Below, in pieces: positions 11,572 through 36,916 of a stretch of DNA of 64,000 bases; position 1 is the first letter of the stretch, and every line of letters starts with the position of its first letter. The DNA comes from Bispira polyomma (taxonomy: Eukaryota), in contig OZ287759.1 in assembly GCA_965649765.1 (NCBI GenBank), positions 12,586,001-12,650,000 on the forward strand, written 5' to 3'. Under the pieces are notes generated by a model that had not been told where the DNA came from, made no database searches, and saw only the letters and a list, made by a program, of their open reading frames with translations. The position numbers and the translations under genes are program-made.

Positions 11572-13384
11572 CAGTGCAATTAATTCACTCAGTCTCTCAA
11601 AAAGATGATCAATCTTGGAATCAAGACAGCTGTGAGACATTACGCGACATATCGATACTAATTACCTCCACGTCACTGCAAAAACCTCAAGGATAAATGT
11701 AGACTTAAGAAAATTTAAAGAATTGTATTCTAAGAATATTTGTGGATATGGCTCCTGAATATTGACAAAGGGCCTCAGTCTTTATTTTAGTCTCAAGCTC
11801 AACATTTATGTCTAAAATATTTAGGACGGCTGACTGCATGCTAGTTTTGGTGTTGAGTGTAAAGTAAAGGCTAATAAAGATCTGGTGTTACTGTCACTGG
11901 GACTAAGACCAAAATCCTAACCCTTTCTGCCAAAATCAACAAAGAACAAAATCGTACGCTTAAGACATCTTGGTTAGTTAGTATGTACTAGGTTAGTTTG
12001 TATATATAATATACACAGTCAATACACGGTCAAATCTTAGACAGCTCACTGTATTCAAACGTGGCTAAAAGTTAGTTCGGACCTCCTGTACGTGTGCACG
12101 GTTGTGTGAAATATCCCTGGATTAACATATTTGAATAATTTTTTTGGTTGACCAGTCGTAACTGAGGTGACTGTGATGTCATTGTAATGTGATGCAATTG
12201 TGGTTTTGTGTCATCACAGAACAATGGTTGGTCTTATTAGAGAGTTATTGCCATACCATATTGGTGATTGGTCATTATATGGATTTAAACATGGTTTCGC
12301 CGAAGAGGCTCATCAGATGCGTATTACCTAATTTTAACGGGGTTAGGTATAGGCTTACTCTGGTGGAAAATATTCCCTGGATTGGGGAAAATAGTACATT
12401 GTGAATGAGGTTTTGTGTACAATATGGGGTGATTTGTCCCAGTTCCACTTTTAGTGTGTGTCTCTTAGTACCATGGAATTGTATACTAAGGTTAATTGGG
12501 CATTTTGTGGGTGGGTGTCATAGAGTTTAGACGGCTCACTATGTAACAATCCTGTATTATTTTGTGTTAAACATTTTATAAATGGTATTTATAAATGCAG
12601 TTTCTTCTTTCAAATTACTGTGACAATATTGATAATCAACATTTACATGTGCTGCAAATTAATATAAACCATGTTTAAGTGGTTTTACTTTAACAAAATG
12701 ACATTAACTTTTATGAATTTAAACAAAGTCTCTAGAGTAATGTACTTTGTTAAGGGGCGAATATATACCTGGCCCATTTTGCTTCAGAATCATATGACGT
12801 CCGTTTCCGCAGATATACTACATCTGAAAAACGGGAAATTACTTCACCTTCCCGTCCGTCATACCCCAAAAAGTGGTCTTGGACCGATTTTGAACATGTG
12901 GCCCCTGGTTAGGAGGCGATGTCGGCCAGGTGTATCCTAATTCTCTGTTTCTGTAATTTTAATTTTTTCAGATGATGGAAAAGGACCGGCACTTTAAAGT
13001 TGACTCAAGGGGTTAGACTTTGGATATCTTACACAACTCGACAATTTCTTTGGCATTTACTGCCTAAAGGGCTTTACAAACTGCTGACTACATCACACTA
13101 TACACTACACGACACTACAGGGGAGGACAACTCACTGGACGACAGTAATAAACACACCAAAAATGACACCACACTACATAATCTCCACAGCCATGAGGGA
13201 GGGAGGGACAATATAACAATATAAGGGAAGAAATAATCAATATGCCTGGTGACACAATGTTTTACTATAGATTTCTCCAAGGCCAATTGTTGTGTTGTTC
13301 AGTGTAGTGTCATGCTGAATAATCAATATATATTGTCTTCTTTCTATTTTATGGTATTGGTATATAAATTTACCAATACCTGCC

Positions 13385-15046
13385 TAACAAAAACCTTGTG
13401 TCATAAAATACAGAAACATCAGCATATGAACAAATTTAGAGACGACATCCTGGAAACAAATCTCATCAAACATCCATGCAAAAATGCTGACAGCCTTGGC
13501 TTACAATACAATCACTGCCTTTCTACTATCCTTGATAAACATGTGCCTTGGGTATCTAAAACCCTTCCCCCAACTCAAACCCATGAATGGACCAACGCCG
13601 CCATTACAGAGCCCAAAAGACGCAAACGCCAACTTGAGCATCAATGGCGACGCACAAAATCCTCCTTTAACAGAAGTCGTTACCATATCGCTACAAACAA
13701 TTACAACAGGCTAATATCTGATGCAAAAAAGCAACATTATGACTCTATCATCAGTGAAAATCAGGATAATCCCAAAAGGTTATGGGCCTCCATAAACAAA
13801 ATTCTACATTGAACATCGGAGAAAGTTCTCCCCATAAACCACTGCCTAACTTTTTTAGCTGAAAAATTTGGAAAATTTTTTATAGAAAAAATCAGCGACA
13901 TTCGTCACGGCTTTCCAACGATGCATCACTTCAGTCCCCTAGCCCCAGGATATAAGGCTTCTAACCTGTTTCATTTCAGTACACTGTCTGAGCAGGAAGT
14001 TCTGAAACTGATAAAATGTTCTCTATTAAATCTTGTGAATTAGATCCCATCCCAGCAGCTATTCTAAATCAATGTCTTGACATTCTAGTCACACCCATAA
14101 CAAACATATTAAATTTTCTCCTTTGGGATGGTGTTTTTCCCACCTGTTTCAAGACGGCTAATGTTACTTCCTTGATTAAAAAACAAGGGCTTGGTAAAAA
14201 CCAGCTCAAAAACTACAGACTGGTGTCAAACCTCAGCTTCGTCTCAAAAGTCATCGAGAAAGCTGTAGCTCAACAAATTTCTGACCACCTTAATAGACAA
14301 AACATTGAAAATCGCCACCAGTCAGCTTACAGAAAGTTTCACTCTACAGAAAGTGCCCTTTCTTCCGTCAGCAATGACATCAATCTTGCACGGGACCGCA
14401 ATGATACAGTGGCCCTCACCTTTCTGGATCTCTCAGCTGCATTCGACACTATTGATCATGTCCTGCTCTGTGACACTCTCAAGCAGTGGTTCAGTATAAA
14501 TGGCTGTGTCCTTAAATGGATCAGATCCTACCTTACTCCTAGGGCTCAAAGAATTAAATTAGATTATCACCTATCATCTTCCATAAAGCTACCATATGGA
14601 GTACCCCAGAGGTACGTCCTTGGCCCTCTACTTTTTACCCTTTATACACATCCTCTCAGCAATGTCATCAATAAACACAGTATAAAACACCACATGTATG
14701 CAGATGACAATCAAGTCCATCTCTCTCTCAATCCAAAAAATGCAAATACAAACATAGACCTGCTTGCAGACTGTCTGGCAGACAGTCTTAACTCTGATAA
14801 TACAACTGAAACACACAGGAAGCAAGAAAAATAAACATTGAACTCCTCAAATCTTTGTTTCCCATCTCCCTGCTGGGAAAAGATATACTACCTTTCGAAA
14901 ATGCCAAAAACCTGTGTGTCACTTTTGATTCAGCTTTTTCGTTCGACACTCATGTTGCCAACATCAGTTACTCCTGCTATTACCATATACGCGACATCAA
15001 AAGAATCAGAAACCACTTGTCCATGGACACAGCGATAACTGTGCAT
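13385..15046 (+). pseudogene. decayed L2/CR1-group LINE ORF2 (reverse transcriptase)
   Basis: RT motifs KSCELDPIP, NYRLVSNLSF, QSAYRKFHSTE, LDLSAAFDTIDH, GVPQ and YADD, broken by a stop at ~13810 and by frameshifts. Confidence 0.92.
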
Positions 15047-16961
15047 TAAAAATCTATAATAATAATAGATAGATTTTTTTTGTTGTATTGACATGTAAAT
15101 ACAAAAAATTTAAACATAGAATGTTTTAGTTTTGTTTTTTACTCATCCCAACATAAGCTGTCACTTTAAACACATCTACATTATTTACAGGTCATATTTC
15201 AAATTCATTAATACTTTGTCATACATGTATGTAACCAATTTTAAACAATGAAATGGCTATTTAAATAAAATTTACTTATGCTCGAACAAGGTACTTTGAA
15301 AAATCTTTTTGGCAATTTTTGTTAACATATATAAATTTCTCTGTTGTCCATGGATGAAAAACCTTCAAATTGTGATGCTATATTGCAATACATTTGTTCT
15401 CGTAAGGAATTATAAACTGAAATATAAAGTATTATACATAAGTATGGTATGCACAGTGATTATTCTAATTATAATGAAAACTTATGTTGTGAGAATCAGA
15501 ATCCTAATATTGATGATGTTGCACATATATAAATATTATTCAGGACCTATTGATATATATATATATATATATATATTTGTGCATTACCAGTGTGTATGTA
15601 CATAAATGTCTCCATATTTATTATGTGTGGAATTTCCATGCAGCGAAAAAAAGAGACAAGTACAGTATTATTTCAAGTAACGGGTAGCCTGTGATTAGTG
15701 GATATCTATTTGTCATTTATTATATAACTGACAAATATGTATTGACTATCAGCACAATTAATTGTAGGATATTGATATTGTTACTTTTTGCCAAATAAAT
15801 ATATTTTGTGCCACGTGCAGATTGGTTTCTGTTCTCCTGATTTGGTTTGGCGACCATTGGTCACACTAAAACAACATAGGTTTTAATCATGCCTATAAAT
15901 GTTAGGTTCTGTGAATTTGGTTATAAAATGGTTTGGAAGACCATGACATGACCTAAATTTAAAAGATTGGCTGTGAAATATGGTAATAAATTGTAATTGT
16001 AATTAGACTTTTGTAGCGCTTAATCTCCCCTTTACAAAAGAGGACTCTAAGGCGCAACAGCACCAAGACAGTGATCCAATTTCAATATCCAGGGACAGAA
16101 AAAAGATCAAGCACCACAGAGAGGATGATTAAGACTAATAAGAATGTAAAGCCAACATCAAAGAAACGTATATATTATTATAAATTTTGGGGTGTAATTT
16201 TATTAGGTTAATAACTGTACAGTATTTTCAAAGAGGCCACCATGTGTCCTAACCAATACGTTTTTGTAGTTGAATAGAAATGTAACCAAAGCCTATGGGG
16301 GTTTGGACCCAGATTAAATTGCATATACAATTCTATTCATAGTGCTTGCAGTCCAGAAAAACATTAGGCCATATCTTTATGCTCACTTATAACACTTGAT
16401 ACACTGAATTTATATAGTTTTGACAATATAATATTGATAACAAATTTTCATTTTCATACTGTGGGTACATGAACAGGAGAAACATGATGACAAGGTTATA
16501 TAATATACATTATAATTAAAAGAAATATAATACACACAGCTAGCAGGTTGGAAATTATTAACATATACAAACAAAATTTAGCAAATAATTTATTTCTGAA
16601 GAAAAGAGCACATTCTCTTGTGTCTGATGTACAAAAGATTCATTATACTCCAACATTATGATAGTCGCCTTGGCAGGTGTAATTTCTTCCTCAAATCAGG
16701 AACTCCTTGTGCTAAAATCAAAAATTGTTGGATAAGGTTTATGACTTCCAACAAGGAGGTTATGTTTTTGCCAGATTCCATCTTGCATTAAACTTCTCAA
16801 TTCATTTTGTTGGAAGGAGAGATAGGCAAAGGTTGAATGTGTTAAATCTTAAAGTGGATCCGGGAGGAAGACCCAACAGGAATCATTATATTGTTTTTGG
16901 CATTGTGGCACTTTAGCCAAGGTCTAAACTCATAATAAGTACCCTAACAGTTTGAATCAGT

Positions 16962-19899
16962 TCAGTGTATGGTTTCCCATGTATTGTCAGTTTTTGCTCC
17001 ACTTTTTTTCTTTAGACATGGGCAACATTTCAGAAATAATACTAGGAAAAAATCCATCACTTCCATTATGCTAACAATACTTGCACCTAAGTACAAACCC
17101 AGCTGTCCACCAATGTTGGACAGAAGCTGTACAAGATTCATGCTAGGCTGTTGCTCCATGATGGTGTAATACATGTCTTCAAAGTACACATGTACTTGAC
17201 TGTAACGTGCTGCAATTTCCTGTTGATCTGTTATTGGCCAACCTCTTGAGCGGGCATAATGAGACACTTGGTTATTTGGAAATTTAGTGGATGACACTCG
17301 CTTTTCAAACTTCACACTGACACACTTGGGTAAGCAACCACAATCGAGTCCATTCTTATAAAGGTCAAGTATCTTGTCATATTGTAGTATTTGCAGATCG
17401 TACAAGCTGCATTCAGGATGTGTTTGATTTCCACCTGTCGATTCTTCTACACAAGACGGAGATGATATATGATTCATTAAGCAATGGTAATTGCACTCTT
17501 CTTTGGAGTACCCTGGCCAAGAGTCCATGTTGCCTGCAGAAACATCTGCATCATCTTCTACACAGTCTTCTTCAGAGAAAGGCTTTGGCAGTCTCTTTGT
17601 GACTTGCTTTTGCAGTGATATATATACCACTTGACCCGGTGCAATTGTTAAACCTTCAATGCTGACTTGGGGAAATACTGCCTGATCATGGATGAGAAGC
17701 ACAAAACCTTGGCCACTCTCCATAGCTGTGATGTAGTCATCTGGGTTTACATCCAGGGTGAGGCTAACTGTGTAAAGTAACCCAGGATATTTCCGTTCCA
17801 TGGGCTTTGTATGCCCTGTTCCAGTATTGAATGAATAACAAAATCCCCTGTCGGTCAACGCAGATGTGACATACTCGGAGCAGTTTAAATAGAACAGGTT
17901 ACTGTCACGACATTCGATGAAAGTTTCCACAATGGTCGGAGCTGTCCTCACATAGAAATCATAGAGTGCCGTTGTTGTCAGGGCCTTTATGACAGCCTCA
18001 TCTGAGAAGTAACTTGGGAGGTTGGAAGCATTTTGATAGAGATCCATATAAAATGGTTCGAGGTCAGGGAAGTGTTGTTTTATCTTACTTTTGCTGTTCA
18101 AGTTATAATTACATAGGGTGATCACTGGTAATGTCAGAGAATTGTTTGATTCTTTGATAATGCTAATTCTGGACTCATACCTGTAAACATAGATACAACA
18201 TTATTTTATAAGCACTTGTATATCATTAACCTAACGAGGAGATTGTTCTAACAACAGAGCATTTTTTACTTTCCACAGGCAAGGGTAGGCAAGGTTGCCT
18301 AGTGTTTAGAAGTGTCGAATCCTGCTTTTTCCTTCATGTCGGAAACTTTGTCAGGTACTTTTGCTGTTGTCCAGTAGTTTCTTCTACCATTAAATCTGGT
18401 AATCGATATGACATAAGCTGTTGAAACCCAGCTAAGTATTCCCAAAGGCAAATGGTGTGTAGGGATCTTTGCCAGGATGTTTAGTCTTAATGACCACTGT
18501 GACCAGGAGAGAACACACAGTCCAGTATAGCAATATAGTAATAGTATACACTTCTTGGTATTTGAGGAAATGGGACCTATAATGATATTTGAGTTACTTT
18601 GAATTATTTTTGTGGTGTATATCTTAATTCCTTCATGTATGTTGTGATATTATACCTCGGCGGTGAATCCACCGATCCTATTGGTTAAAATGCGATCATG
18701 TGACGTAAAATAAAACCTAATATGGACCTCTGATAATTTGTTATGGCCCTCTAAAAATTTGATATGGCCCCCTAAAAAATGCTTTGGTATAATAATATTA
18801 TGTTTCTATAATCTGACCAAAATCTTGCTCTCCCAAAATGGTTAGATGATAGAGGTTCTACTGTAACCACTTTCAGAACAAATCAATCCTGTTCTATAAA
18901 TATGCTTGTTTTCATTATAACTGAAACATCATCTATTCTTTAAAGGAAGTTGCCCCAAGTTACCCTTATGCAATGTGAATATTATTTCGGTTCATATTAT
19001 TTTTACCCTAAATTTGTGAAGATTTAGTTTTACCCCGCTTTCAACAAGTTAGGTCATATTGCAACGGTCATATTTAATGATGGACGGAACCAGTGCTGGA
19101 GTACTCTAAATCACCAAAGAAGTACCTGAAAAAATGTCTCACATGAAGATAAGAATGGGATTCGATCCCACAATGAATGAGAACACTGATTATTAGCAGG
19201 CACTTCTAACCACTAAGCCACTGCAGCCCCTATTTTTACCTAGAAGATGTAAGCTTTTACAGTTTATTAAATGTTGGAGGTTTTGACACTTAATCAAGGT
19301 TTAAATACAGAAAATTGTATACCTTAAGATGAAACTACATTCCAACTGTGTATTATTAAATGAATGAAATAGGGTATTTTTTTACAGCTCACAAACAGAA
19401 CACAGCATATTTTTAAATGCGCTTCCTCAAAAGCTGCCACTATGGGTGCCGAGGTTTACTTCAGGATGACCATTTATCAACATCCCTAAGGATCATTAAT
19501 ATGCAACTTGATGTTATTCCACCAAATGAAATAGAACCAGGGACCTTCTGATCATTAGACCAACACCCAAACCACTAGAGGGATCATTGTGTGTGTTATA
19601 GCTGGTATGTTATAAGCTAATACTAGTAGAGACATATAAAAGATTTACATACCCTATACTCTATTCTACTCTATACAAATTCTAGAGTCTATGCGGGAAA
19701 AAGGTACTTGCCTGTTATATTGCAATGCTGTATCAATAAGTGTCCAGAGAAACAGCACCGTCATTGCTAATAAAATTAGACACCAAACAATTCTTCTTAA
19801 TAAAAATGTTTTCTCGCAAGCTATCCTCACGCCGTGAAAAGTTGTTTCTGTTGAAAAATCTGCCATTTCTTTGCTCCATTTTATTTCTTCCTTCTCCAT
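16962..19899 (-). CDS. DEG/ENaC (amiloride-sensitive Na+ channel family) subunit, copy A, ~468 aa; exons 19899-19712 and 18180-16962
   Basis: TTFHG gating motif, TM1, LPVITLCN, GFCYSFN, Cys-rich thumb, TM2 LLSNIGGQLGLYLGAS. Phase-2 intron with donor AG|GCAAGT and acceptor TTTACAG. Confidence 0.93.
19030..19230 (-). mobile_element. older tRNA-derived SINE related to family A
   Basis: The reverse strand has TGGCTTAGTGG and GGATCGAATCCC. Similar decayed copies at ~18285-18435 (+) and ~58820-59035 (+). Confidence 0.65.
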
Positions 19900-20569
19900 T
19901 TTGGACTAGCTTGAACAAAATAATTTATATATTCATCTAAATGAAAAGATTATAAAAGCAAAATGTCTGAAAAAAGTTAAAAGCGGTAGTATTCAATATT
20001 GCAGAGTTGACATTTGCTCTGATGAAGTCATTTGTGATCAGGTAATGGCACATACCATACATAGTCCAAAATGGATTATTTATGTTTACTTCGTCAATAT
20101 CTGGAGCAAATTTCCCATTTGGTACCATTATGAAAATTAATTGGACTAAGTGCAGCAGGAACTAACAAGATATTAAAAAGTTTGATCATTTTTATTAGTT
20201 ATGTTAAGCTTTTAAAAAGCACCAAAATTGATAAATCAATCCTCTAAGGCGCTTGTCGGAGACTAGGGATCAATAGTCCTAAAACTTAACATCGATCATC
20301 ATCATAAGGCAATGGTGTGTTCACATCTTGCCCAAAGCTGTTCTACCCCAGTAACTGTTATTTAGAATAGAGTCAATCAATTTTTCGGCCAAAAGTATTG
20401 CAGTCTTCTTTAAACTTATTGTTTTGTCCAGGGTGCAGCTCGGTCTACTTTAATTTCGGATTTCACCTCTCTCTTTCAAAGCATGCCAAAAGTATAATTA
20501 TCTCAGTGCAGGAGTTCACAGGCTGCTTCTTTGTTCAACAATTCAGGTGAATGAATGTGGGATTAGAAG

Positions 20570-21060
20570 GTGTCAAAAACGTGCTGACAAATTATAGACC
20601 CGTCAGCTTTGTCTCTGAACTCACTGAGCAAGCTGTTGCAAAACCAATTTATGACCACCTTAACAAACAAGATATTCCTAACTCACACCAATCTGCTTGC
20701 TCAAAGTTTCACTCAATGGAAAAGTGCCCTCATTTCCATCAGTAATAACATAAACATTGCAAAACTGTAGCCCTCACCCTTCTAGATCTCTCAACAGCTT
20801 TTGATACCATGGACCATTGTCTACTTTGTTTTGGACTAAATAGCACCATTCTCAATTAGATTGTATCTGGCTCTCATAACCAAAAAAATCAACCCAGATG
20901 ATCACTTTTCATGCTTATTCAACCTACCTAAGAGTTTGGTCCTCCTCTGGCTTCCACCTTTTTACCCTATGCACACATCCAACCAGTACAGTCATCAATA
21001 ATCACAGTGTTAACGTGCTGACTACACTCAAATCTATCTCTCACTCAACACTTGAAATGC
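20570..21060 (+). pseudogene. highly decayed LINE RT fragment
   Basis: NYRP..FVS, HQSA..KFHS and LDLSTAFDT remnants, similar to the 13385-15046 element. Confidence 0.75.
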
Positions 21061-21189
21061 CCACAAATATCTTGGTCTTGTTTGAATTGGGTTTTGTATC
21101 ACAATAGGTGTCACTTTCTCTTGAGTGCAAGTGCCAAACACTCTGCCAACATTAATAATATTAATGCGGTGGCTCCTTAATTTTTTATT

Positions 21190-21830
21190 GCCTTGTCTTT
21201 GCACACATTTGTCTTATGGCTACCATTACACATTTCACAAGTGTGCTTGTAAAATTGATCCCCTGTGTTATGGGTACTAGAATACTTGTAAGTTCCTTCT
21301 TAAAAGAACCTGCAAGTAGTATAGCTCTTTTTGTAGCTACCCTTTTTCACATTTGCATTGGCAGTGCGGCCATTCGCCCCATTGAAATTTTTTAAACTGG
21401 AGATATGGTGTTGTGCGTGAGCCCCAGGTATTCTGTCGACTTTTTTGACACGCCTTAGCCGCCTCCCAAGAAAAATCATAGGCATCTTCCATTAGACCAC
21501 CCATGTAATCGAGCATGGGATTTTTGATTTCTAATGATTTCTCCTCGTGAGTGATTCTAGTAAGGCACAGACCCACTGTACCAAGGTGAGGTCATCATAG
21601 CTAGGTTCTGTTTTGGCACTACCCGTTAATACATAAGTTTGTGGCCATTCAACGAATTTTTTGACAAGTAATTTACTTCTTCCACTTCTCTCTGACTTTA
21701 ATTTACCTTGTGAGGGAGTCTCGTTAAGGGTTTTGAGATCCTTAATTCTCTGCTCTACTTGCCACTGAATTTGGGCATTATCTCTCAAAAATTGGGCACT
21801 ACGTACAACTGTCTTGGCCTGAACCTGAAC
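21190..21830 (-). mobile_element. DIRS/Ngaro-type retrotransposon gag-like ORF1 remnant
   Basis: Frameshifted pieces WPQ..V....PSYDDLT..QWV and MLDY...LMEDAYDFSW.AAK, followed by a C-terminal Cys/His finger (HTCEMC...H....C). The pattern is recalled from Ngaro-like ORF1 proteins. Confidence 0.6.
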
Positions 21831-22521
21831 GGCTGTTACTCATGTCAACAGAAACTACATTAGCCATAGAACTAGAAAGAATAGTGTGACTTGCCTGTCT
21901 ACTTTTTTGTCATCCAAAGTACAATTTTTTGAAAATACTAGTCGTTCTGTTGACAAAACGGTAAAAAAGCGAGAAAATTTTAAAAAGGAGGATGCTTATA
22001 TAGCCATCAATCCCATAATGATCAGACTGGTACCCCAGAACTGAGGCTGAGAACGCTGGGTGCGTTCGCTTACAGAATCAAAACAGACTGTGGGTGATGG
22101 GGAGCGAAAGAAAGGTTAAGAATTTCTATGAGACTGAATTGGGTTAACACAGAATATGCAATTTTGGGGATAATTTTTTCTTTAAATTCAAATAGTTGCC
22201 TGGGTTAAGTTATTCTAAACTGTACCATAAAAGTTCTGTAATCAAAACAAATTGACTTTTAAAAAAACAATGACCTCCTAACATTGTTACCAACACCAGA
22301 AATATTTTACTTTTTGAAAACAGGTAAACCATCTTTGAAACCTTCTTTTGGTAAAATTCACACGCATAATATTTTACATTAAAAAGTATTTATTGGCCTT
22401 TAAATTGTATTGTGATTTTAGCAAGAATGTATCTATACAGGTGTTGTAAAAAAAAATTTAATTTGAATATATATATTTGTTTCAAAAAGAATGTTTAGAA
22501 AAAATTAATAAAAAGTTTGTT

Positions 22522-24896
22522 TCAACTATGTTTAGGTAATTTAGGTAGAACTTTGATTTTTGTTACATGGCGATTGTTACGTTTTCTACTACAAGGGCAG
22601 TACTTTATGGCCAGTACAATAATAAAATCAAGCAATTCCAATATGCTGATGATACTACCACCTACATATAAAGCCATTTGTCCACCAATGTTTGAGACAA
22701 GCTGAACCAGATTCACTCTTGGCTTTTGCTCCAAAATAGTATAATCCATGTCTTTAAAGTATATATGAAGCTGAACATAGCGTGAAGAAATGGCATCAGC
22801 ATCAGTGATCGGCCAGCCTTGGGACTTCGCATAGGCAGGCACCTGCTGATTTGGAAACTTTGAGACGGTTATCATTTGTTCAAATTCATTCTTAACACAA
22901 GTTGGTGGACAGTCACAGTCAAGACCATGCTTGTATATGCTTATATATTTGTAAAATTCAGACACTTGTGCATGGTACAGTGAACAGGAGGTCTTAGATG
23001 TGTTTGAGTTGTGAGTTTGGAGTAAAGTGCAGTCCGGGGAAAGATAGTCCATAAGACACAGAAATTCACACTCTTCTTGGGAATAATTTGGCCAAGAATA
23101 CATTCCTTGTGGTAGGGCTTTCACGTCATCTTCACTTAAACAGTCCTGTGATGAGTATGGTTTGGATAAACTCTTTGTTACTTTCTTAAGCAGAGAAACA
23201 TGGACCTCCTGGCCTGGGCTGACAACAAACCCATTCGATGTTGGTCGGGGGTACACTGCTTGGTCATGGATCAACACCATAAATGCTTCACCCAGCTGCC
23301 AAGATGTCAGGTAGTCATGAGCTCTAGTATCTATTGTTAGCCTTATGTCATATATCAGACCGGGATATGACCTTTCTATAGCCGCCGTAGATCCATGGCC
23401 AGTATTGAAGGAGTAGCACAGTCCTCTTTCAGTAAGATGTGCTTGAGTGTATTCACTACAGTTCAAGGAATATGTCCTGCTGTCAATACATTCTATAAAT
23501 GTCTCTTTCACATTAGCAGATGTCTTATAAAACAAATCTGAAAGTGTTGTATTTTTCAGAGTGTCAATGACTGTTGCATTGGATAGATGATTTGGTACTT
23601 CAGAAAGGTCTGCGTTCAGGTCTGTGTAAAACTCCTCCAATTCTGGGTAATATTGCCTTATCTTGCTTTTACTTACAAAATTTGTATTACAGAGTGTTAT
23701 AACTGGCAGCGTCAGAAGTGAGCCATTGTTTTCTGTGGTAATGCTAATTGTAGATGTAAACCTGAAACATTAAAACAAGTTGATATTCATTATTTCATTT
23801 TTTTCAGCTTCATGATGGCTGCAAGTTTAAATGAAGTCCCAGAGTCATATTACAGTGTTAGGTCATTACACAATATATGTTTTATGTTTTGTTAAGAATA
23901 AAACGATGCAAGTGGTTCAGTTTTCACAAATTATGAGTAATTTGTGCTGCTGATCTAGAATTGTTGTGTTAAAAATGTAAAAACTTTTTCTGAGTTAACC
24001 TCATCCCAACACATCACCTCTTGACATAGATCTAGAATAATTTGAATTCAGTTGACTTTTAAACAGACGTCACTCTTCGCCTCAAGAAACTACACTGGTT
24101 TTCCATTCATTCTGGAATTTTGTTCAAAATTTGTGTTACCACATTCAAGGCTGTAGTCACTCAACAGCCCTCCTACCTCGCTTCCCTTCTGTCTTTCAGT
24201 AACCTGAAGAGTGGCAATACACTCTCTGTTTCTTCTGTTAAACCCACCAGGAAGGCAGGATCCAGAGCTTTCTTCATTGCAGCTCCCTTGTTATGGAACA
24301 GTCTCCCAGTTGACCTCAGATCGGTAGATACACTTATTGGTTTTACAAAAAAGCTCAAAACCTATCTTTTTAACCTTGCATACCCACCGTAGTTTCTTCC
24401 TGTACACCCCACATCTTTCCTTATGACCTTGCTATGCCCATAGACTTCCTGATTGGATAACTGATTCTGCTGTTGTGCTTTAGAAGATACCTAGCATCAA
24501 TTAAGCGTGTTAAAAATGCATCTAATAAGCCACCACACATAAGGATAATTAAGTACCAATCGTGCAAAAAAAGTAGCAATGATGGCAATGCTCTTTAAAA
24601 AGTCTAATAGTTTAAAATTCTAACAATTCTATTCACAATAAAAAATTGTGATGGTGTATATTTGGTTAAACAATTTTAATGTACCTGCTATATAACAGTA
24701 CTAGGTCTGTGACCAAGTAAACAAACATGCCAAACATCATCAGTAAAATGATTATCCATAATATCCTCCTGAAGAGGACAATCCTGCCACATAGGAGTCT
24801 TACTCCATGAAATGTTGTAAGCGAGGAAAATTCCTCTATGTCCTTCTTCAATGTAGGAGTTTCTTCGTCCATTGATGTAGTATGTGTATCTGACAT
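22522..24896 (-). CDS. DEG/ENaC subunit, copy B, ~483 aa; exons 24896-24685 and 23761-22522
   Basis: TTFHG, LPVITLCN, GLCYSFN, thumb cysteines, TM2 LVSNIGGQMALYVGGS. GT-AG phase-2 intron at the same position as in copies A and C. Confidence 0.93.
24070..24528 (+). mobile_element. L2-type LINE 3' end in the intron of channel B
   Basis: LKKLHW...FKI...GSRAF..AAP.LWNSLP...F.KKLKTYLF..AYPP followed by a tail. The tail alone also occurs at ~26795-26890, ~31462-31557 (-) and ~57803-57905. Confidence 0.85.
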
Positions 24897-25454
24897 AATA
24901 TGTGTATACCTGATTTCAATTTCAGTTCTAACTCACATACATCATGTCACTCTGGAATTACATCAGATAACATTTCACTAGCTGGCTTCACTTACATCCT
25001 GCTTTCATAGTGTTCACACTTGTTTTATCTTTTGTGTTGATTTAGTCATGCAGTTAAAGTTTTTGTTAGCTACAAACGGGTTTTGGCTTTTTCAAATCTT
25101 TTTCCAGTCAATATACATTATACTCTATGTAAAGTAAATATTTGACCATAAATGAGCCATTTAAGGTATTGATTGTCCTATTATCCTGCTAATGCATTCT
25201 ACCTGAGGCATTTTAAAAATAGATATTCTGGCTTTGATGAGTGAAGCCTTTACATTTCTGATTAATGAAATGGTAGTACGGATATATATATTAACAATGC
25301 AAATATGTAAATCAGTTCAGACCTTCCAACACTTTTAAACCCCCTAAACATGTCAAATATCAAATGTCTCCATCAACCAACTGCAACTCCCTTTTGTTTG
25401 GAGTAAAAAAGTCACAGATTGAAAATCTCCAGTCCATTTAAAACTACTTATGTA

Positions 25455-26793
25455 GGGTGATTTTTCGCATGGGCAGTCGTACCTATGTCACTCCATTCCT
25501 CAAAAACCTACACTAGCTTCCAATTCATTATAGAATTGTGTGACTTTGCCATGTCAATTTGCCAGGTGGTGCCCTTAAATGATATATGTCATATCTGTCA
25601 AATAGGTGTTGGTCTATAAAGATTTGCAGCGCTACATCTGTTCCAAGTATCCTGAAGTACAGGGTGCCACAGGGATCAGTTCTGGGCCCCATACAGTTTT
25701 CTATGTACACTGCACCTCTAGAAAAACTCATCTCTGCCTTTAAATCACTGAAATATGATTTTTATGCAGATGATACCCGGGTATATTGCCACATCACCCT
25801 GGATGAAACGGAAACCACCTTCAGCCATCTCGAGAAGTGCCTAAGTGACATCCAATCATGATTGAATTCAAACAAGCTCAAGCTTAATCCTTCTAAGACA
25901 GAGTTTATGGTGTTCGGAGCGGCAGCCATGCGAAAGAGGTTAGAACCTCTACTCCCAACCCACATACTTGGCAAGAGGTTTGAGGCAGCTGAATCAGTGT
26001 GGATCCTTGGTGTCATATTTGACTGTGATTTCTCTTTCAAAAAGCAGGTGGATGCTGTTTGCAGGTCATGTTTGTTAGTCTTTGAGACCTACGGAGAATC
26101 AGACAGTACCTACAAAGGACCGTGGCCATCTTGGCGGCAAACGCACTTGTCAGTAGCAGACTGGACTACTGTAATTCACTATATTGTGGTTTATCCTAAG
26201 GTAACCTGAGAAGATTGCAGTGTCTGCAAAATGCGTTTGCACGAGTTGTCACAGGTTCCCACAAGTGGTCCCACCTTATACAAGTGCTCAAGTCTCTACA
26301 TTGGCTCCCTGTTAAAGAGAGAATCGCTTTCAAAACTGCAACCCTCATTTACAAAAATTTTAACTCTGGGCAGCCGCAGTACTTCCATTAATACATAAAT
26401 TACTACACATCCTCTGTCAATACCAGACGTACTGTTGCTACAAAGAAATACCTAATTCTTCCCACCTTTAATCCTCTGACTCATAAGTCTAAAACTCATT
26501 TTGATGGATCATTTGCAAATAACAGACCTAGACTTTGGAACAGCCTCCCACTTGCTGTACGATCTGCCCCCACACTGTCATCTTTCAGGCGTAAGCTTAA
26601 GACTCGCCTGTTTCATGAAGCCTACCCCCCTTAGCACCTTTTCCTCTGGTTGCGCAAACGCTTTCTGATGCCGACCCTTTTTTCTTATGGATTTACGATA
26701 TTGCCTCTACCCCTTATGTTTTATCACGCCTTAAAATTCGATATACATTAAAATTAAGCGCACAAAATGTTTGTATATAATAATAATAATAAT
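25455..26793 (+). mobile_element. L2-type LINE 3' half, decayed
   Basis: VPQGSVLGP, YADDT, LKLNPSKTEF, SRLDYCNS, LHWLP and RLWNSLP motifs with stops/frameshifts; (TAA)n tail. Confidence 0.9.
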
Positions 26794-27123
26794 GTCCATG
26801 GATCAGTAACGATTGGATTACTTATTCTGTTGTTACGCTTAAGAAGATGCCTAGTATCAATAAAGTGCGTTAAAAATGCATAATAATAAAAATAAACAAG
26901 TTTAAAAAATAAATTAGCATACAGTGTAATTAACACCTCACCTCAGTTTGGCTAGGTCGATTGCTTCCAACAAATCCATGAAGGATTTGCATATTATTTT
27001 TAAAATAGTGGCTGTGCCCGATAATCGCCTGATAATATAAATGTGACACCTCTTAATTTTGCTGGGTTGATTACCTTCCAACCAATTCATGAATCTACTC
27101 TAATCAATTCCCATAATGGCACT

Positions 27124-27378
27124 TTGAATTTGAATTTGGATATTTAACGTCCACTCTAGTACCTGTTTAGGTTATATTGGGATGGGTACTTGGAAACGCT
27201 GGAGGAAACACTGCATACAGTTGATCAAGGTTCTGCACTGAAACCAGCGGCCCATAGTAAGGAACTACCACCTTTCCCACATAGGCATCGACTGGATTCG
27301 AAGTCACGCCGTCCAGAGGTGAGAGACCAGTGATTGTGAAGTGCAATGCTTGCTAACCACTAGGCCACCGCGGCCCCC
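27124..27378 (-). mobile_element. SINE family A copy
   Basis: Reverse complement of the 3114-3376 element along its full length. Confidence 0.92.
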
Positions 27379-28203
27379 CTAAATTGGCGCTTAATCTCCT
27401 CCGTATTAATGGATTCTAAGGCACAAAAAATCAGAATGGTTATTCAGTAATTCATAAATGCATTACATATTTCCAACATGGCCTTTTCAGCATGAAATCA
27501 ACATTTGTAAAGCACTAAATTGATGGCACATCCTCTTGAGGGCCTCACAGACTGCCGACTACACGACACATCACGACACTAAAGGCGACTGCACTGCACG
27601 ACAGTTACATACACACCAAACACCACACTACCACATAAGTGTGTTAATACAGAGAGCTCCCCCCCCCCCCCCCCCTAAACTTTTGCTAATATTACATATA
27701 TGAAAATCTAACGACACAATGGTGATTTTTCAAAGTCCATTTGCACTGTTGTACTGTGCAGTGTAGTGTAGTGTCCTGCTAGAAGCAGTCTGGATAATCA
27801 ATATTTATTCTCTTGTTCCTATATGTTTGTAGTGTCATCTACATACAGGTGGTGTGTGACCTTGAACTGAGAAGTGATTTTGCAAGGAGAGACAGTGTAT
27901 AATACGTACAAAAAGGAGACTCATCACCGACGCTTGTGGCACACCATAATGTGAGGAAAAGCTTCTAAGAGACATATTTAAATATATATATATGTATTCC
28001 TATTAACAAGAAAAGACAGAGTGCAATCAATGCGACACCAATGTTACTGACATTCAGAGACAGAACAGAGTGATCAATAATATCATAAGCTGCGGAGAGA
28101 TCTCGAAAAGTAAGACCTGTTACTTTTATTTTACACTATCTATTGTACGAGAGATGTCATTCTGTATCTTTAGAAGTGCAGATTAGTGGGGAACTTTGCA
28201 AGT

Positions 28204-28603
28204 TGAAATATCAGTGTATGTGAGCACATTAAACACTCAGGCTTCCGGGGTATCTCCTTTAGCTCAACTGTTAAATGGGCGACTATAAATCACAATACCT
28301 ACAAGAACCTCGGATCGAATCCCAGTAGAAGAAAGATTCTCTTTAATATTACATGGTCAAGATGCCTGAAGATCCCCCCACTCTCAACCAAGCGAGTTGC
28401 GTAGTAGATTCATAATGTAGTCATAGAAGACCTGAGGGCAGGTCTTAATGGGGGTGAGGCATGTAATATCAGTTTATATGAGCACATTGAACACTCAGGC
28501 TTTCAGGGTTTCCCCTGTAGCTCAACTGAGATGCTTGCGACTATTAATAGCAAGATCTATAGATGGAATTACAGCAAAACCAAGTTTACTCTTTAATATC
28601 ACA
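28204..28603 (+). mobile_element. TRIM (miniature LTR element) with tRNA-like cassette in its LTRs
   Basis: LTR1 28204-28353 and LTR2 28462-28603, both TG...CA. TGG-starting PBS-like site at 28354; purine-rich GGGGGTGAGG before LTR2; 4-bp TSD AAGT. LTR1 has A box TAGCTCAACTG and B box GGATCGAATCCC. Confidence 0.85.
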
Positions 28604-28804
28604 AAGTGGACTGAAGAACAGTAGAAGCAAATATGTAACCTCAGCAATGTGTTTGTTTACCTGCTTTACCACTACCTTCTCTATAAGTTTGAGATAAAAA
28701 GGTCTGACACTGGTCTGTGGTTTTTAAGACCATTCTTATCAAATTTAACATTCATATAATATTGATCAAATCCTAACTATTTTGAATAAAACTATCCCAA
28801 GAGT

Positions 28805-31200
28805 TTATTTATTTATTTTTTTATTGTTCTCTTTGGTTTACATGAATACAAATAAAAAAATACCACACATATTGAACCTTGGTGAGAAAACACATTTACA
28901 TTATTAATTTTCTATAAAGTCATTCAATTACATTCACATTACTAATTTTCTATAGTCATTTATTTACACCGGCAAAGAGCACAAGATAAAACTAATTGGG
29001 TACAACTACAAACACACATATATACAGGCAAAAAAACAATAATTCCATTACATGTCCAACAGTTCTTTTAAATTAATTTCTATCAAAGGTTCACAATACT
29101 GTAGACTATTTTACTGCTACAAAAGGAATTATATTTCAAAAAATATAGTATGCCAAATCAACTATTTTATTTTAAATCCCTCAGAGGGGCCGCGGTGGCC
29201 TAGTGGTTAGCAAGCATTGCGCTTCACAATCACTGGTCTCTCACCTCTGGGTGATGTGAGTTCGAATCCCGTCGATGCCTATGTGGGAAAGGTGGTAGTT
29301 CCTTACTGTGGGTCGCTGGTTTCTCTGTAGAACCTTGACCGACTGTATGCAGTGTTTCCTCCAGCGTTTCCAACTACCCGTCCCAATATAACCTACTAAA
29401 AGGTACTAGAGTGGACCTTAAATATCCAAATTTAAATCCCTCAGATGTTTTATTTATTTTGACAACAACTCCTGTTCAAAATATTTGGTTTTAGCTATTT
29501 TTTTTTGTAAATGATATATGTTAAGATCTCGGTTTTTCAGGCATTTGTTAAAATATAATTTCTCGTAGTTATTAAGATAAAATTTAGTGGCCAAAAATTT
29601 TGATGATCTTCTAGGGTACCTAATATTTTGACAAAATTTTTCTAAAAGGATTTTATTCCTAGTTTTGTTTCGATCAAGGTTATTACATTATTCCGGAACT
29701 AATGTACTATTAATTCAATACTCTGATTACACAGCCTACATTGATCACTATCAGACAGTTTATTTTAAATAACAATTCTTTTGTCTATAAAATTCAATGC
29801 AAAATTCGATATTGGAACCAATTAAAATCCATATCGTTAAAAGTATAAATACAAACTTTATATATTATTCTCCATATGTTTTGAATTGCTTCAATGTTTA
29901 AAACTAAACCCCATTTTGTTTCATTTTTTTTGGCAAATTGTCACATAATTCTTGCAATTTTAAATAAATATTATACCAGTATAAGAGTTTACTAAAATTC
30001 TTGTATAAAAAGGAATATATGGTTTTAGAAAAGGACAGACAATATTTTTCACACTTTGCACTAAAAAATGGCTGAACAGAACATTTTACCGTAAAGTAGT
30101 GAGATTTTCAATGACAAGTTGGATAAAGCATATGATTTCAGTAAGAAGAAGATAATGGCTGATCCTGCTGAAATATGTAGCTGGAGATTAAACAAAATTA
30201 TTTACTCAAGGGGGTGAGTGGTGTACTACTATAATACCAAGATTAAACCCCTTTTAGAAAATATTTCTTACTGATTTTAAAGAACTTTGTAAAGTTGCAA
30301 AAGTTCAGACACATCCAGACATATTTTGCAGCAGTATTTGGTTCAGTAGCCATATTGGCACGGATAAACTTTTCTTTCCAGATTTTTTTAATATGGTATT
30401 TATGTTATTGGAGATATTGTAAACTTAGAGGGCTGTATATTAACCCAAGAAGAGAATATACCTAAACCGGTGTTGGGATTGACAAGAACAAGTGGATCAA
30501 TTTTGATAATATTAGTGTCTTAAAAAAAGTCAGTGTCAGGTATCTAAATCTCCATGATTGAAGTGTGTGTTTTGTGTGTTAATTTTTAAAGATTTCTAAA
30601 TGAGAAGGCTTAATATTTCGGCTACCAACAAAAAAAAGATACAGAGCAATTAGGTCTCCTTGTCTACAGCCCCATTCTACTGGTATTGGATTAGATAAAA
30701 CTTATATCTCTATTAAAAAATTTTATCTAGTTAAGGAAATTTTTACTGAAACCAAAATACTTGAGTACTTCATGGATGAAAGCTGACTAGAAAGAATGGA
30801 ATGCTTTCTCAAAATCAATTAGCATTAATAGCCCTGGAATTGTGTTTTCTTCTGTATAGGTCATTAAATCATATATGTCTAGTAGTTTCTTCTATGCATC
30901 TGCCACTTATGAATGCAGATTAGTTTAGAGAGATAATATCCGCTAAAAGAGGTTTTAATCTTACGTCTATAGAAGAAGCTAGCTTAGATAGAACACACAA
31001 AAGTGATATAGGGCAGCAGTATTTTAAAAGTGTTCAATCCTCATCACCCTTTGGTATACAACTTATGATATCATGTCTCATTCAGATAGTTAGAAGGCCT
31101 GTAAAAACAAACAAATTTATAACATTAGTAATGCAATTGTATTGTCCCTTAATTCGCAGAGCTCAAAATAAATACAATATAGACATTGACAAACAAAAGT
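28805..31200 (-). mobile_element. decayed L1/Tx1-like LINE
   Basis: The minus strand gives YDLMTYTEENTIPGLLMLIDFEKAF (~30790-30900) and zf-RVT-like WFQYRILH...C..C (~29680-29820); A-rich tail near 28805. Confidence 0.7.
29186..29430 (+). mobile_element. SINE family A copy
   Basis: Full length; perfect 15-bp TSD TTTAAATCCCTCAGA (29171-29185 / 29431-29445). Confidence 0.93.
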
Positions 31201-32183
31201 GGTGGCTGTAAAACTTAGATTAGAATCCCTAAAGTTTAATGAAGTCACCTTAAAAATTACAATATTTTTTTTTCAATTGGTTAATTTTTATTTTGGCATT
31301 ACTATAGAATAGAACCTATAGGACCCCTTTTAGTATTTTACATCTTGTCAAATAGAACAGCAGATAGTTCATACAAGTAACTGAAAAACAAAGTATTTCA
31401 AAAGTATAGTAAATAGGATTTAAGCATTCTGAGGTTTAAGATAAATTTAACTTCAAATTAATATTATTATTACGCATTTTTAACGCGCTTTATTGATGCT
31501 AGGCATCTTCTAAAGCGCAACAGCTTAATCTGTGATCCAATTGTAAAATCCATGGGCAAAGTTGCAATGTAATTCAAATGATACAGAAATTATATTATTT
31601 AGGTTATACTGAATAAAAACTAGAAAGGCACCCAGAACGGTTTATACCTCTACAGAAACACCACAGTGGCAAAAAGTGAAAAAAAAAATTCTTGAATCAG
31701 CCACGGTCTACTCAGATCTGCTCTATAAAACTTTAATGGATTCTTTCCAGGCACTTGCGATATCCCCTCAAACAAATTTCATTCCATGTAAATCACTTTG
31801 TAAATTTAAGTGCAATCCTGGTGACAAACAAACCAATTAACATGGGCGAAAAAAACATAATCTCCATGACACAGGTAATAAAACACAATTTTACCTTCAT
31901 TGTAGTATTATTGCATCACTACATTCATACAATCAATTAAATTAAACTGTTACACACTGACACCCTTGTACATCAACACCTACAGTCAAAAACTAGTTGG
32001 GTATAACAAGATAATGCATCAAAGATATATATGTATGTAAATAATCCACCAAAATTGCATATATGTTTCCATTTAACAGACAAGTAATTGTGATGTTTCC
32101 ATCTTATATTTATTTCATACTGATAGGCTTAGATATCGGTCGTATTTCTCTTTAATAGTTGAAAATCTTGCACCTAGTAGGCT

Positions 32184-34577
32184 CTAAAATGAACCAGTTT
32201 TCTGCAATACTTGAACCTTATTCGTGGTTTTCTTTATTGTATTTTGTAGTGAAGGGCAATGTTTTATCACTGTGATGATAATGAAGTCAAGTAGTTCCAT
32301 TATGCTGACGAGACTTGCACCTATCCACAAACCAAGCTGCCCACCAACATTTGAGAGGAGCTGTACTAGGTTCATACTTGGCTGCTGTTGCAAGACAACA
32401 TACTGCATTTCTTCAAAGTACACATGTACCTGAGTATATCGTAAAGCGATTTCTGTGGCATTCATTACTGGCCATCCGTGTGCTCTGGCGTGCCCAGAAA
32501 TCTGTTGGTTCGGAAATTTGCCACGGCTGATTTTCTGCTCATAGCCTGTGTAGGAACATGCTGGTGAACAATTGCATTCAATGCCTTTCTCATACATCTT
32601 GACCATTTTAAGGCTATCTTGTTGAAAGATGCTGTATAAAGAACAAGGAGGGTTGTTATTTGTGGAATACACTGAAGGAATTGACCAACAGTCGTTGGAA
32701 CTGAAATAATTGAGCAGGCAACGATATTCACATTCTTCCTCAGAATTTCCAGGCCATATGTCTACTTCATCCTCGTGGATTTCTTCATCTCCATCTACAC
32801 AGTCTTGTGAGGAATAAGGACGTGGTAGTATTTTGGAAATGCGTTTCTTAAGAGAGATGAACACCTCTTGCCCAGGCCCAATCCCAAAACCTCTGGTGTT
32901 CATTTGCGGAAACACCTTCTGATTGTGTACCATCATGTAAAAACCTTCCCCCTGGCTTGATACTGCAAAATATTCTTCTGGATGAACATCCAGAGTGAGG
33001 CTTATTTGATAAAGCATGCCTGAGAATGATCGGTTGATAGCCTTTACCTGGCCCTGGCCAGAATTGAATGAAAAGCAAACTCCATTCTCAGTGATTTTTC
33101 GCAATACATATTCACTGCAATTCAGGGGAAACAGGTTGCTGTCTGTGCATTCAACAAAAACTTCATCAACCGTTGCCGCAGTTTTAAGAAAATACTCCTC
33201 AAGTGTAATATTTTTTAGCGCTTGAATCAGTGTAGCATTGGTAAAAACGTTTGAAATTTCATTGATATTTTCATAATACACCTTAAAGAACTCCTCCACT
33301 TCAGGGTAATATCTTTTCACCTTTGAATGGGTATAAATATTTATATTACAGAAGGTTAGAACTGGCAATGTTAGCGTGTCTGCAGTGTCTTTTGTGATGC
33401 TTATGGTAGATTCATAACTGAAACAACAAAAAAAAATATATATATATAAAATGTAACTTTTGGTGAAGTAAGGTCTTATCTCCTGCGAGTTTTTTTTTTA
33501 TAAGAATTATGCAACTAAATGCTAGACCTCTATAAATTTATATTGGAAAAAAAAACATGAAATATAAAAAAAACTGAAGTATATTCTTAAAAGTAATTAA
33601 TGATTATACTTTTTCTATATTTTTCATATCATCACAAACATTAGTCATTGTATCAGTTTAAAGTGACTTATAAACTCTCTGTGTGTATTTTTTTTTTATT
33701 GTATGTTGTTTAGGTTTATACACAGTCACTATAATAAATAAATTAAAATGAATATATAACTGAAACAAAGAAATTTACTAAGTCTGTGACAGGTTTTATC
33801 ATTGAAAAAAATCCATTCTATTTCCCTTTGACTTATGCTGTATATTCTTTCTTGTTAATTAGGAAAAAGAAATAGAATATTATGTGTAATATTTCAATAT
33901 TCAGTTATTCCACTAATCACATCACAAAACTATAAGAGATGCATTATTTGCTGTTATGGCCTGAAATTTATATTTCATCAATGCTAACAGCAAAAAGGCA
34001 CACACAATTTGTGCAGTTAAGTAAATCAGTTTTATAATTTAAAAAACCCCACAATATTTGTGACATAATTACAGATGAATATATTATTTAGCCAAGGTGT
34101 GCAAAGTATTTGATTTGGACACACTTAATACATATTAGATTATAAAGGTCAAACTGATGTCAGACTATATAGCAGACCTGAAGTTATATTCTTAAATTAA
34201 GTCAATGACTGTCTCTAATAGAAACCTCTCTAATAGAAGGTGCATTATTGTAGTAATTAAAGAACAAGAGCAAAAATTATAATTAAGGAAAGTGTAAAAT
34301 GACTTGTTCTGAGAAATATTATAGAATGTAAACCTGATATTCAAACCCGGCGACCCTCAATCCCAAGTTTGACCATGGACTAAAGAATATGTTAAAAAAC
34401 ATACCTATTGTATAGTACCATGGAATCAACCAGTGTGCACATGAAGAGTCCCAACATTGTAAACAAAATCGCGAGCCAGATTATTCTCCTTAAAATGAAG
34501 ATCTCTCCACAGACTATTCGGATTCCGTGAAAGGTGGTCTCCTGTGAAAACTCCCTAATTTCTTTCTTGAGGTTCAT
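32184..34577 (-). CDS. DEG/ENaC subunit, copy C, ~468 aa; exons 34577-34405 and 33417-32184
   Basis: TTFHG, LPVLTFCN, GVCFSFN, thumb cysteines, TM2 LLSNVGGQLGLWIGAS. GT-AG phase-2 intron; in-frame stop upstream of the ATG. Confidence 0.93.
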
Positions 34578-36916
34578 TTTATTTTAATATCCGAACCCTA
34601 TTTAGAACAAATGTAATTTAATATGCTTTAACTGCACTAGACATTAACCTAGATCAACTACAGCTAAAAGATTTACAGAACCCTTTAAAGGAACCAGCAA
34701 TTTTTTTCACTGGTCCCCCCCAAAAAGTGTGGCATTGATTCTGACTTTGTAACAAACAGTATCTGTTGGGACTGTCTTTCTGTTAACAAATCAAACAAGT
34801 TTAATGGCCATTAAATGAGCCATTCAGTGCGTTCACTATTATCATTCTAATATTAATGACACTCCTTTTATATACAATTAGCAATGTTTACCACGGCTTT
34901 ATTCATCTGTGAACAATTTCCTCTACTTTTAATTAAACAAATACAGGTGTATACCAAGTGTAAAACATCTTCACAGTTGTATGTCTGACATGAAACAAAC
35001 CAGACAAGCAATCATGAGAGAAACCAGAATTTTACCATAGACTAAAATTTCCTTATTAATATGAAAAACCTAGTCCATGGTATCAATAAGGATCCAATTG
35101 AATGTAGTACTTCTTAGGTGCTAAATCTTCCCTAGAAGACAACTCAAAGAAGCATATATATGGCATCCTAATCACAGCAAAATTCATCATAAAAATGACA
35201 AAACCAAAGTCGCCAACAAAATTACTAGCATTCACCCAAGGGAAAAGAAGGGCTATGCTGGAAAACTTGGTTAAAAAGATTCTCCAAAAGAGAGGATGCT
35301 CCTTGCTGTACTGATGTGGAGTGCAAGATTATTTCAGAGAGAAGGGGCCATATATGATGCAGATTTTTGACGAAATGGCTACTGTATATAGTTGGATTTG
35401 ATATATTTTGGGACCTAGAGAAAATTTTGATTAGGGTTACTCATAGGAGTCGTGCTGGATGAAGTGTGTGTCTAATTTATTTGAGGTATACTGGCTGGCC
35501 AAAACTTGTTTTGTTGGTCAGGAGGTGCATCTGTAATAATAATATGCATAGTAGTTCAAGGGGTTGTTTGCATTGTAGCACATTTTTGGGGGTATTCATA
35601 GAAAGTTTGGGTTTTAAAAACTGTTAAACTAACTTCTTTTTTTTTCAGGTTAGGCTTTATAGTCACAATTATAGCTTCAGAAAATGAGGTCAGATTAACT
35701 GAACATGTATATTTTATTGTGAAGGGCTAACCAAGAGTTTTATAAAATTTATGTTGTTTCACACAAAAACAGCGCTTACTTTGATCCATGTTACTTATAG
35801 GGTTGTGGCTTACACATACATCTGATGAAGCGATCTTTACATGTCACATTTTTTCAGTGGGTGGTTAAAAGTTTTCACGATCTGCTACCTGCAGATCAAA
35901 TTAGATTATTCTAGCTTAAGCAGTTTAGTCAAAAATGACCAAAGGCTATTATAGAAAAAAGTCACCAAGGCGGCCATCTTTATTTGTAGATTTGGTTGAA
36001 AACTTGTATCATGCATTGTATGAACATAATAAAGCATCATACAACATACCGGTATGACTATCATAAGTGCAACAATTTTACTCTAGTTAGACATTGGTCA
36101 CAAACGGACGAGCGGAAATGGCAAAATTCGACATCCCCTGCCCTGCGGAAGAATAATAACTGAAACCATTGCTACACTTTGTACATTTTATTATGTATTT
36201 TACATAACATATACAGCATTAAGATTGACTATCAAAAATATTAATTAAGAACTTTTAAAATGTGTCATGCCATATTCACTGTTATAATTAGTGAACTGTC
36301 TTTTTCTTTCTTTCTTCGACAAGTTATAGTTAGCAGCCACAGTATAAAACTACATTCGAAGACTACAAGCTTGTATCATCAGTTCTTTAGATCAATTAAA
36401 ACATGACAGAACAGTCATTTTGGAAACATTGTGGCTTGTATTGCCTAAACAATTGCTATTCTGAAGTACATCAGTAACACACTAAAATTATTTGGAGGGT
36501 ATAAAATGCCTTTGTACAAATATGATAGAATCTCTATTACCAGCACAGCCAAGGTACCACAGTGTCAAAAAGTCGGGAAAAAATCCTGGATCCATTGCAA
36601 GATTTACTGGATTCTTCCTTGGCCCATGCCTCATCTCTCCACCAAATTTCATGTAAATCAATTCAGTGGGGGTTTTTAGTGTGAAATAAGCAAACCGACC
36701 AGCCAATGGATAGAGGCAGAAAATGTTTGGTCGTTTGAACTGAGCTTAAGATTATAAAATGAAACATTAGGAGTTGCAATGAATCCCCAGAAACTAAAAA
36801 AAAAAACTAAACATTTGACTCATAGCACTTCAGATAGTCCACTGTGAAATCGGGCACCCATATTTATACTTAAAGGTCTTAACACTTAAAATAACTTCAC
36901 AACTCTGTCCTGCTCA

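Follow-up and report, generated by a model that had tools for sequence, protein, structure and literature searches.

Known Channels and the Locus Under Study

The principle of a DEG/ENaC channel made of different paralogous subunits is not new, as ENaC, HyNaC, FLR-1/ACD-3/DEL-5 and Ppk channels are already known. In Hydra, HyNaC2/3/5 are lineage-specific paralogs of 454–507 aa with identities of 29–65%, which belong to the ASIC/BASIC side of the family and form three-subunit channels that are combinatorial and RFamide-gated (PMC4212090). C. elegans FLR-1/ACD-3/DEL-5 and Drosophila Ppk23/25/29 and Ppk11/16/1 are independently evolved three-subunit DEG/ENaCs, leak channels included (PMC10148893). 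The stretch analysed here, hereafter the window, comprises 64,000 bp of the Bispira polyomma contig OZ287759.1 (assembly GCA_965649765.1, positions 12,586,001 to 12,650,000 of the forward strand) and harbors three neighbouring DEG/ENaC genes, designated A, B and C. These represent a real, old and conserved three-gene cluster, which is a fair candidate for a heterotrimer on better grounds than those of the original prediction. By analogy, HyNaC2/3/5 would be the best functional analogue of the trio, and the nematode and insect sets belong to other lineages with no close sequence relation to it. Characterised members of the trio's group in the literature examined are the peptide-gated FaNaC/WaNaCs and the ASICs. 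A description of the trio was not found in the literature searched, with subscription papers outside its coverage, and no match to QVHVYF, LVQLLS or GQMAL was found in the trimmed alignment of PMC10507113, where line breaks may hide matches and supplementary files 6 and 13–15 lay outside the search.

Structure and Age of the Three Genes

The three genes lie on the minus strand in the 5' to 3' order C, B, A, and each exhibits two exons and an open frame without internal stop, encoding 468 aa in A, 483 aa in B and 468 aa in C. In all of them a short exon 1 encodes the N-terminus with the HG motif and the first transmembrane segment (TM1), and a long exon 2 encodes the extracellular domain, the second transmembrane segment (TM2) and the tail. 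A phase-2 intron separates the exons at one common codon after TM1; in gene A this shared position is reached only with a GC donor (CAG/GCAAGT, with the slash at the splice site), giving an intron of the GC-AG type, whereas B and C have GT-AG introns. We infer the start codons and the splicing of A, B and C from the sequence, with the following layout in window positions.

16962–18180, minus strand: gene A exon 2, extracellular domain, TM2, C-tail and stop (Pfam match, frame)
18181–19711, minus strand: predicted gene A intron, phase 2, GC-AG, 1531 bp, position as in the GT-AG introns of B and C
19712–19899, minus strand: gene A exon 1, N-terminus, HG motif and TM1, predicted start
22522–23761, minus strand: gene B exon 2
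23762–24684, minus strand: predicted gene B intron, phase 2, GT-AG, 923 bp
24685–24896, minus strand: gene B exon 1, predicted start
32184–33417, minus strand: gene C exon 2
33418–34404, minus strand: predicted gene C intron, phase 2, GT-AG, 987 bp
34405–34577, minus strand: gene C exon 1, predicted start

Exon 2 of each gene matches the Pfam family ASC (PF00858) at about 1e-60 with 201–205 bits (curated cut-off 23.6), and the trio carries the hallmarks of DEG/ENaC proteins, namely an N-terminal HG motif, two transmembrane segments, a G-x-S belt and an ASIC-like extracellular fold. The pairwise protein identities among A, B and C are 49.1/46.5/44.5%, the synonymous sites are saturated (proportion of synonymous differences, pS, about 0.82) and the nonsynonymous proportion pN is 0.32–0.34, indicating that the genes are old duplicates under purifying selection. 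The open frames, the shared phase-2 intron and the identities of 44–49% bear out the original prediction of three intact, co-oriented and diverged paralogs with a common gene structure. A fourth copy was searched for by tblastn and found neither in the window nor in the flanking 10 kb to its left and right; the nearest further family matches on the same chromosome are 1.2 Mb off. Counting against the original prediction, another chromosome (contig C5) carries a broken copy of A. Genomic-type DNA reads (three runs, at most two samples, one study) cover the exons with two synonymous differences in A, and no intron-skipping joints at the trio were observed among the matches listed for these runs.

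Orthologues in a Second Species

Protein searches detected close outside relatives for every member of the trio: P0001 with 58–59% identity to A, P0155 and P0006 with 58% to B, and P0160 with 56% to C. In each of the three orthologue clusters, one protein comes from an ENA record of 2,261,441 bp and another from a record of 134,953 bp. Given these equal record lengths, the three orthologues probably share one contig in the second species; if this is the shorter record, all of them would fall inside 135 kb. No fourth close protein was present among the matches listed in three of the protein searches. P0155 begins with non-homologous residues just ahead of the exon 2 boundary, which suggests that its gene has the same intron as B.

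In a tree of 13 proteins, the pairs A and P0001, B and P0155, and C and P0160 each received a support of 100/99 within a six-protein clade (100/100). A tree constrained to unite the three window genes in a single clade is worse by 173 log-likelihood units (p-AU 3e-86, approximately unbiased test), and a separate triplication in the host lineage is rejected. A tree of 75 rows, built without host rows below 250 aa, without six copies identical to others and without twelve loci that were partial or very long, placed the short fragments P0101 and P0018 from other records with the A and C lineages. A scan of metagenome contigs with B found no relative, and a search for shorter relatives, which covered only 30–63 aa, found none. 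All six proteins have a residue in 372 alignment columns, of which 76 are invariant; in another 22 the two members of every orthologue pair agree and the pairs differ. B stands apart in nine of these 22, two of which lie in the pore. Copy number of the trio is not variable in the one relative with all three genes, and this stable one-to-one retention of subunit classes in one other species is necessary, not sufficient, for an obligate heterotrimer.

A Conserved Pore Change Confined to Subunit B

The pore residues of the trio show a conserved asymmetry, in that B alone combines Ala at the amiloride site with a GGS belt.

22672–22674, minus strand: gene B Ala434 at the pore glycine site, kept in the orthologue P0155
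22654–22662, minus strand: selectivity belt of gene B, GGS as in P0155, where A and C have GAS

TM2 was compared in 166 aligned proteins out of 177 of the family, a set biased to relatives of the trio from which 13 near-duplicate cluster members had first been dropped. The amiloride-site residue is Gly in 161 of the 166 and Ala in B and P0155, with one further Ala and two Ser as the other exceptions. GGS replaces the prevailing GAS in seven, and the two changes occur together only in B and P0155. None of the 54 other motifs read from the host genome has Ala at this site. By alignment, Ala434 occupies the position of mouse ASIC1a G438, which is equivalent to ENaC alphaS583, betaG525 and gammaG537 (PMC5962070). 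In ENaC, betaG525A confers an amiloride resistance like that of G525C, about 1000-fold, and the channel is asymmetric at this position; Cys in all three subunits is non-conducting and one Cys is tolerated (PMC2217053). The Ala and GGS of B would thus fit one specialised subunit in a mixed pore, and they do not force heteromery. Because betaG525A alone renders ENaC amiloride-resistant (PMC2217053), the natural Ala of B should serve as a built-in reporter, and three short two-exon genes make a test of heteromery unusually direct.

Placement Among ASIC, ENaC and FaNaC

The motif ahead of the pore reads LLSNIGGQ in A, LVSNIGGQ in B and LLSNVGGQ in C, exactly as the L(L/V)SN(I/V)GGQ reported for it, with SN at the degenerin site.

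17115–17120, minus strand: SN of gene A
22690–22695, minus strand: SN of gene B
32349–32354, minus strand: SN of gene C

The original prediction took SN for the ENaC state, and SN, although present here, is not diagnostic of ENaC. Among the 166 aligned relatives the pair is SN in 34, SD in 32 and GD in 15, and the alignment file of PMC10507113 contains LSNIGGQ six times and LSNVGGQ four times, the carriers of LSN(I/V)GGQ being Trichoplax TadNaC5 and two more Trichoplax records, as well as proteins of Hoilungia, amphioxus, Platynereis, a rotifer and Aplysia. TadNaC1-9 are placed in clade A with BASIC, and clade A contains uncharacterised lophotrochozoan groups (PMC10507113). SN was therefore rejected as an ENaC marker, and since it is widespread and the trio is nearer to ASIC than to ENaC, it is no evidence for an ENaC-like channel. 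In the host genome, one of the 54 other motifs read has SN, that of the near outgroup L005, so the SN of the trio was probably inherited.

The nearness to ASIC is observed in sequence, profile and fold: the profile scores are 1e-55 against ASIC and 1e-44 against ENaC, and a predicted model of A exon 2 (predicted local distance difference test, 73.9) matches ASIC1 with E 1.7e-27, a template modelling score of 0.67 and about 22% identity in the structural alignment. The placement of the trio in clade A is based on the profile and fold scores. ASIC1/ASIC2 and BASIC (clade A; PMC9822975, PMC10507113), to which the trio is most similar in sequence, profile and fold, also share with it a similar length, a short finger domain and, for A and C, the GAS belt. 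The trio differs from them by Ser at the H73 equivalent, Tyr/Tyr/Phe at that of K211 (A/B/C; read by eye from alignments), SN instead of GD and the loss of two thumb cysteines that are retained by L005, P0002 and P0008. These cysteines presumably form one disulfide. The H73 and K211 equivalents are the criterion for ASIC proton sensing (PMC10507113), and in non-ASIC members proton sensitivity is possible without H73.

Vertebrate ENaC subunits have furin sites in a long finger domain and a C-terminal PY motif. The six proteins lack both a C-terminal PY motif and an R-x-K/R-R furin site in the extracellular domain, the single R-x-K/R-R match being in the cytosolic tail of P0155, and the trio is about 170 aa shorter than vertebrate ENaC alpha/beta/gamma. 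The features common to both, namely SN, one of three paralogs being non-Gly at the amiloride site, and GGS in beta-ENaC as in B, are convergent. The annelid FaNaC/WaNaC channels are of the same family and probably the same phylum as the trio (PMC9234716); the trio falls outside the FaNaC/WaNaC-like clade (100% support) and matches FaNaC1 only around TM2. These comparisons point to DEG/ENaC proteins that belong neither to ASIC (by the residue test) nor to ENaC nor to FaNaC/WaNaC, that is, to an unnamed subfamily.

The outgroup L005, an intronless gene on contig C11, also bears on whether the trio is used combinatorially in the manner of Hydra, with a common subunit and alternative partners (A/B, B/C or L005) and no fixed set. 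HyNaCs form 13 combinations around HyNaC2 (PMC4212090), L005 shares SN and is 33–37% identical to the trio, and A and C group against B in the 13-protein tree (88/90). Yet a long branch with full support separates the trio clade from L005, which keeps the thumb cysteine pair that the trio has lost, and such combinatorial use appears improbable.

The DEG/ENaC Family in the Host Genome

A genome search with gene A gave 101 exon-level matches, which is a lower bound. Apart from the trio and the C5 fragment, 66 stretches were examined, and every one of them contains a DEG/ENaC match, in some cases broken or partial. Since many of these loci are tandem, three adjacent copies are unremarkable in themselves in this genome. 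The number three might even be a chance stage of birth-and-death turnover in a large receptor family, in line with the at least 66 other loci, with the dead copy of A on C5 and with the published expansion of the family in an annelid, a leech (PMC4085046). This is very unlikely, as all frames of the trio are open although their synonymous sites are saturated, and the one-to-one orthologues at 56–59% identity in the 13-protein tree largely refute it. The C5 copy (L004, C5:84.61 Mb) is broken and comprises exon 2 sequence 86% identical to that of A together with about 110 bp of intron, and exon 1 was searched and not found; because intron sequence adjoins the exon 2 copy, it appears to be a DNA-level duplicate and not a retro-duplicate of A. 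As evidence for dosage selection the fragment was rejected, since without exon 1 it may have been dead from the start.

The trio was also compared with other tandem groups. In 13 of 14 other groups, represented by the members whose sequence was retrieved, at least one pair is 76–100% identical, whereas the highest pair of the trio reaches about 50%, suggesting that most tandem DEG/ENaC clusters turn over and the trio does not; it is not the sole old cluster.

Proposed Heteromeric Assembly and Possible Separate Channels

In the mechanism proposed here, three anciently duplicated intact genes kept one-to-one in two distant animals would encode the subunits of a trimeric cation channel of heteromeric make-up, in the simplest case A+B+C, and to this we give an even chance. 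Subunit B is predicted to lend the pore a face that is asymmetric and amiloride-resistant. We infer co-expression, co-assembly and pharmacology of the trio, and gating is the weakest step: the channel might conduct a sodium leak at rest, subject to modulation by extracellular Ca2+ or pH, or be opened by a chemical ligand, possibly in an epithelial or sensory cell. Proton gating of the ASIC type is unlikely, as is protease activation of the ENaC type. A strict, obligate A/B/C heterotrimer is doubtful. So is the fuller scheme of an obligate A/B/C channel encoded by one tandem cluster, with fixed copy number across a deep lophotrochozoan split, an origin on the ASIC/BASIC side and a convergent ENaC pore design in which exactly one subunit is non-Gly; it can be put forward only tentatively. 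Three-paralog DEG/ENaC channels have evolved repeatedly, with HyNaC2/3/5, FLR-1/ACD-3/DEL-5, Ppk23/25/29 and Ppk11/16/1 as precedents, and a heteromeric trio, if true, would represent an additional independent origin of a channel with three different subunits and a natural test of how homotrimers turn into obligate heteromers. The heteromer proposed in the original prediction is thus retained in part, with indirect support from the one-to-one orthologues and the conserved pore change of B, and its SN argument fails.

Several observations weigh against co-assembly. The complete set of three is seen in a single further species, known from its proteins and record lengths. Other old, unclustered paralogs also pair one-to-one with outside proteins (L006/P0010, L026/P0047, L028/P0052), and one FaNaC-like tandem pair on C4, at 46% identity, is as old as the trio. 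The GGS belt occurs in five other rows of the 166 and in Trichoplax TadNaC5. ASIC1a G438A homomers, with Ala in all three subunits, conduct, with weaker diminazene block (PMC5962070), so partners are not a necessity for B. The HG motif and a complete pore are present in A, B and C alike, and none is an obvious accessory subunit. A 13-mer common to the upstream regions of B and C has no match upstream of A. Stable one-to-one paralogs would be just as likely to result had the copies specialised for different tissues or ligands.

The genes may accordingly encode separate, mainly homomeric channels, divided by tissue, stage or ligand and together only because linkage was never broken. Each of the three proteins is complete, their extracellular regions are strongly diverged, poly(A)-type signals lie downstream of each gene separately, and some Nematostella channels function as homomers (PMC9822975), as the conducting ASIC1a mutant does. 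Such a division is quite possible, short of an even chance; against it, no surviving extra copy of any member was seen in either species, though 13 of the 14 other clusters show recent duplicates, and the rare pore change, itself conserved, is found in B alone of the three.

Upstream Sequence and Neighbouring Features

The upstream word shared by B and C lies at a distance of 265 bp from B and 247 bp from C.

25149–25161, minus strand: 13-mer upstream of B that recurs unchanged upstream of C, weak candidate for a shared cis-element
34812–34824, minus strand: 13-mer upstream of C, same as that of B

Against a background in which 45 of 2938 random window pairs reach 13 letters, with three gene pairs tested, it is a weak hint of a shared cis-element, and no upstream word of at least 10 letters common to A, B and C was found. 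Decayed fragments of reverse transcriptase of the long interspersed nuclear element type were observed at window positions 13237–15049, 20551–21107, 24063–24392 and 25583–26634, some of them in the intron of B and between the genes, with an RVT_1 match at 13995–14831. Very high-copy short repeats occur near 27100–27400 and 29180–29400. On the plus strand, 8935–11571 holds one apparently intronless open frame of 878 codons with sterol-sensing, Patched and MMPL matches, which we take to be a Dispatched-like gene.

Other Observations in the Host Genome

Expanded, mostly intronless FaNaC/WaNaC-like genes of 540–620 aa, several near-identical, were observed at L065–L076 as candidate peptide-gated channels. 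A gene on C7 matches FaNaC1 (8on7), presumably an annelid protein, with E 4.5e-179, and another FaNaC (7yvb, Aplysia) with 1.1e-49. Seven DEG/ENaC copies with 100% identical proteins are arranged at a 13.3-kb period at L019–L025 (C12:5.79–5.87 Mb), representing either a very recent tandem amplification or an assembly artefact. L058 and L059 are DEG/ENaC frames without introns that, at 971 and 946 aa, are roughly double the usual length and have a GCS belt, and in L009 and L011 (C3:19.58 Mb) Ile replaces the usually polar Asp/Asn after the degenerin site, which possibly alters Ca2+ block.

The mitochondrial contig C75 (L032–L033, 15.5 kb) reads by the invertebrate code, with AGA/AGG as Ser, AAA as Lys and ATA as Met, and ARAGORN with its bacterial model found no tRNAs on it. 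Its atp6-nad5-nad4L-nad4 block is presumably annelid-like, and together with the FaNaC1-like gene on C7 the contig points to a lophotrochozoan host, probably an annelid. The genes cox1, cox2, cox3 and nad3 lie on the strand opposite to the other protein genes, and genes on both strands are unusual for most annelid mitochondrial genomes.

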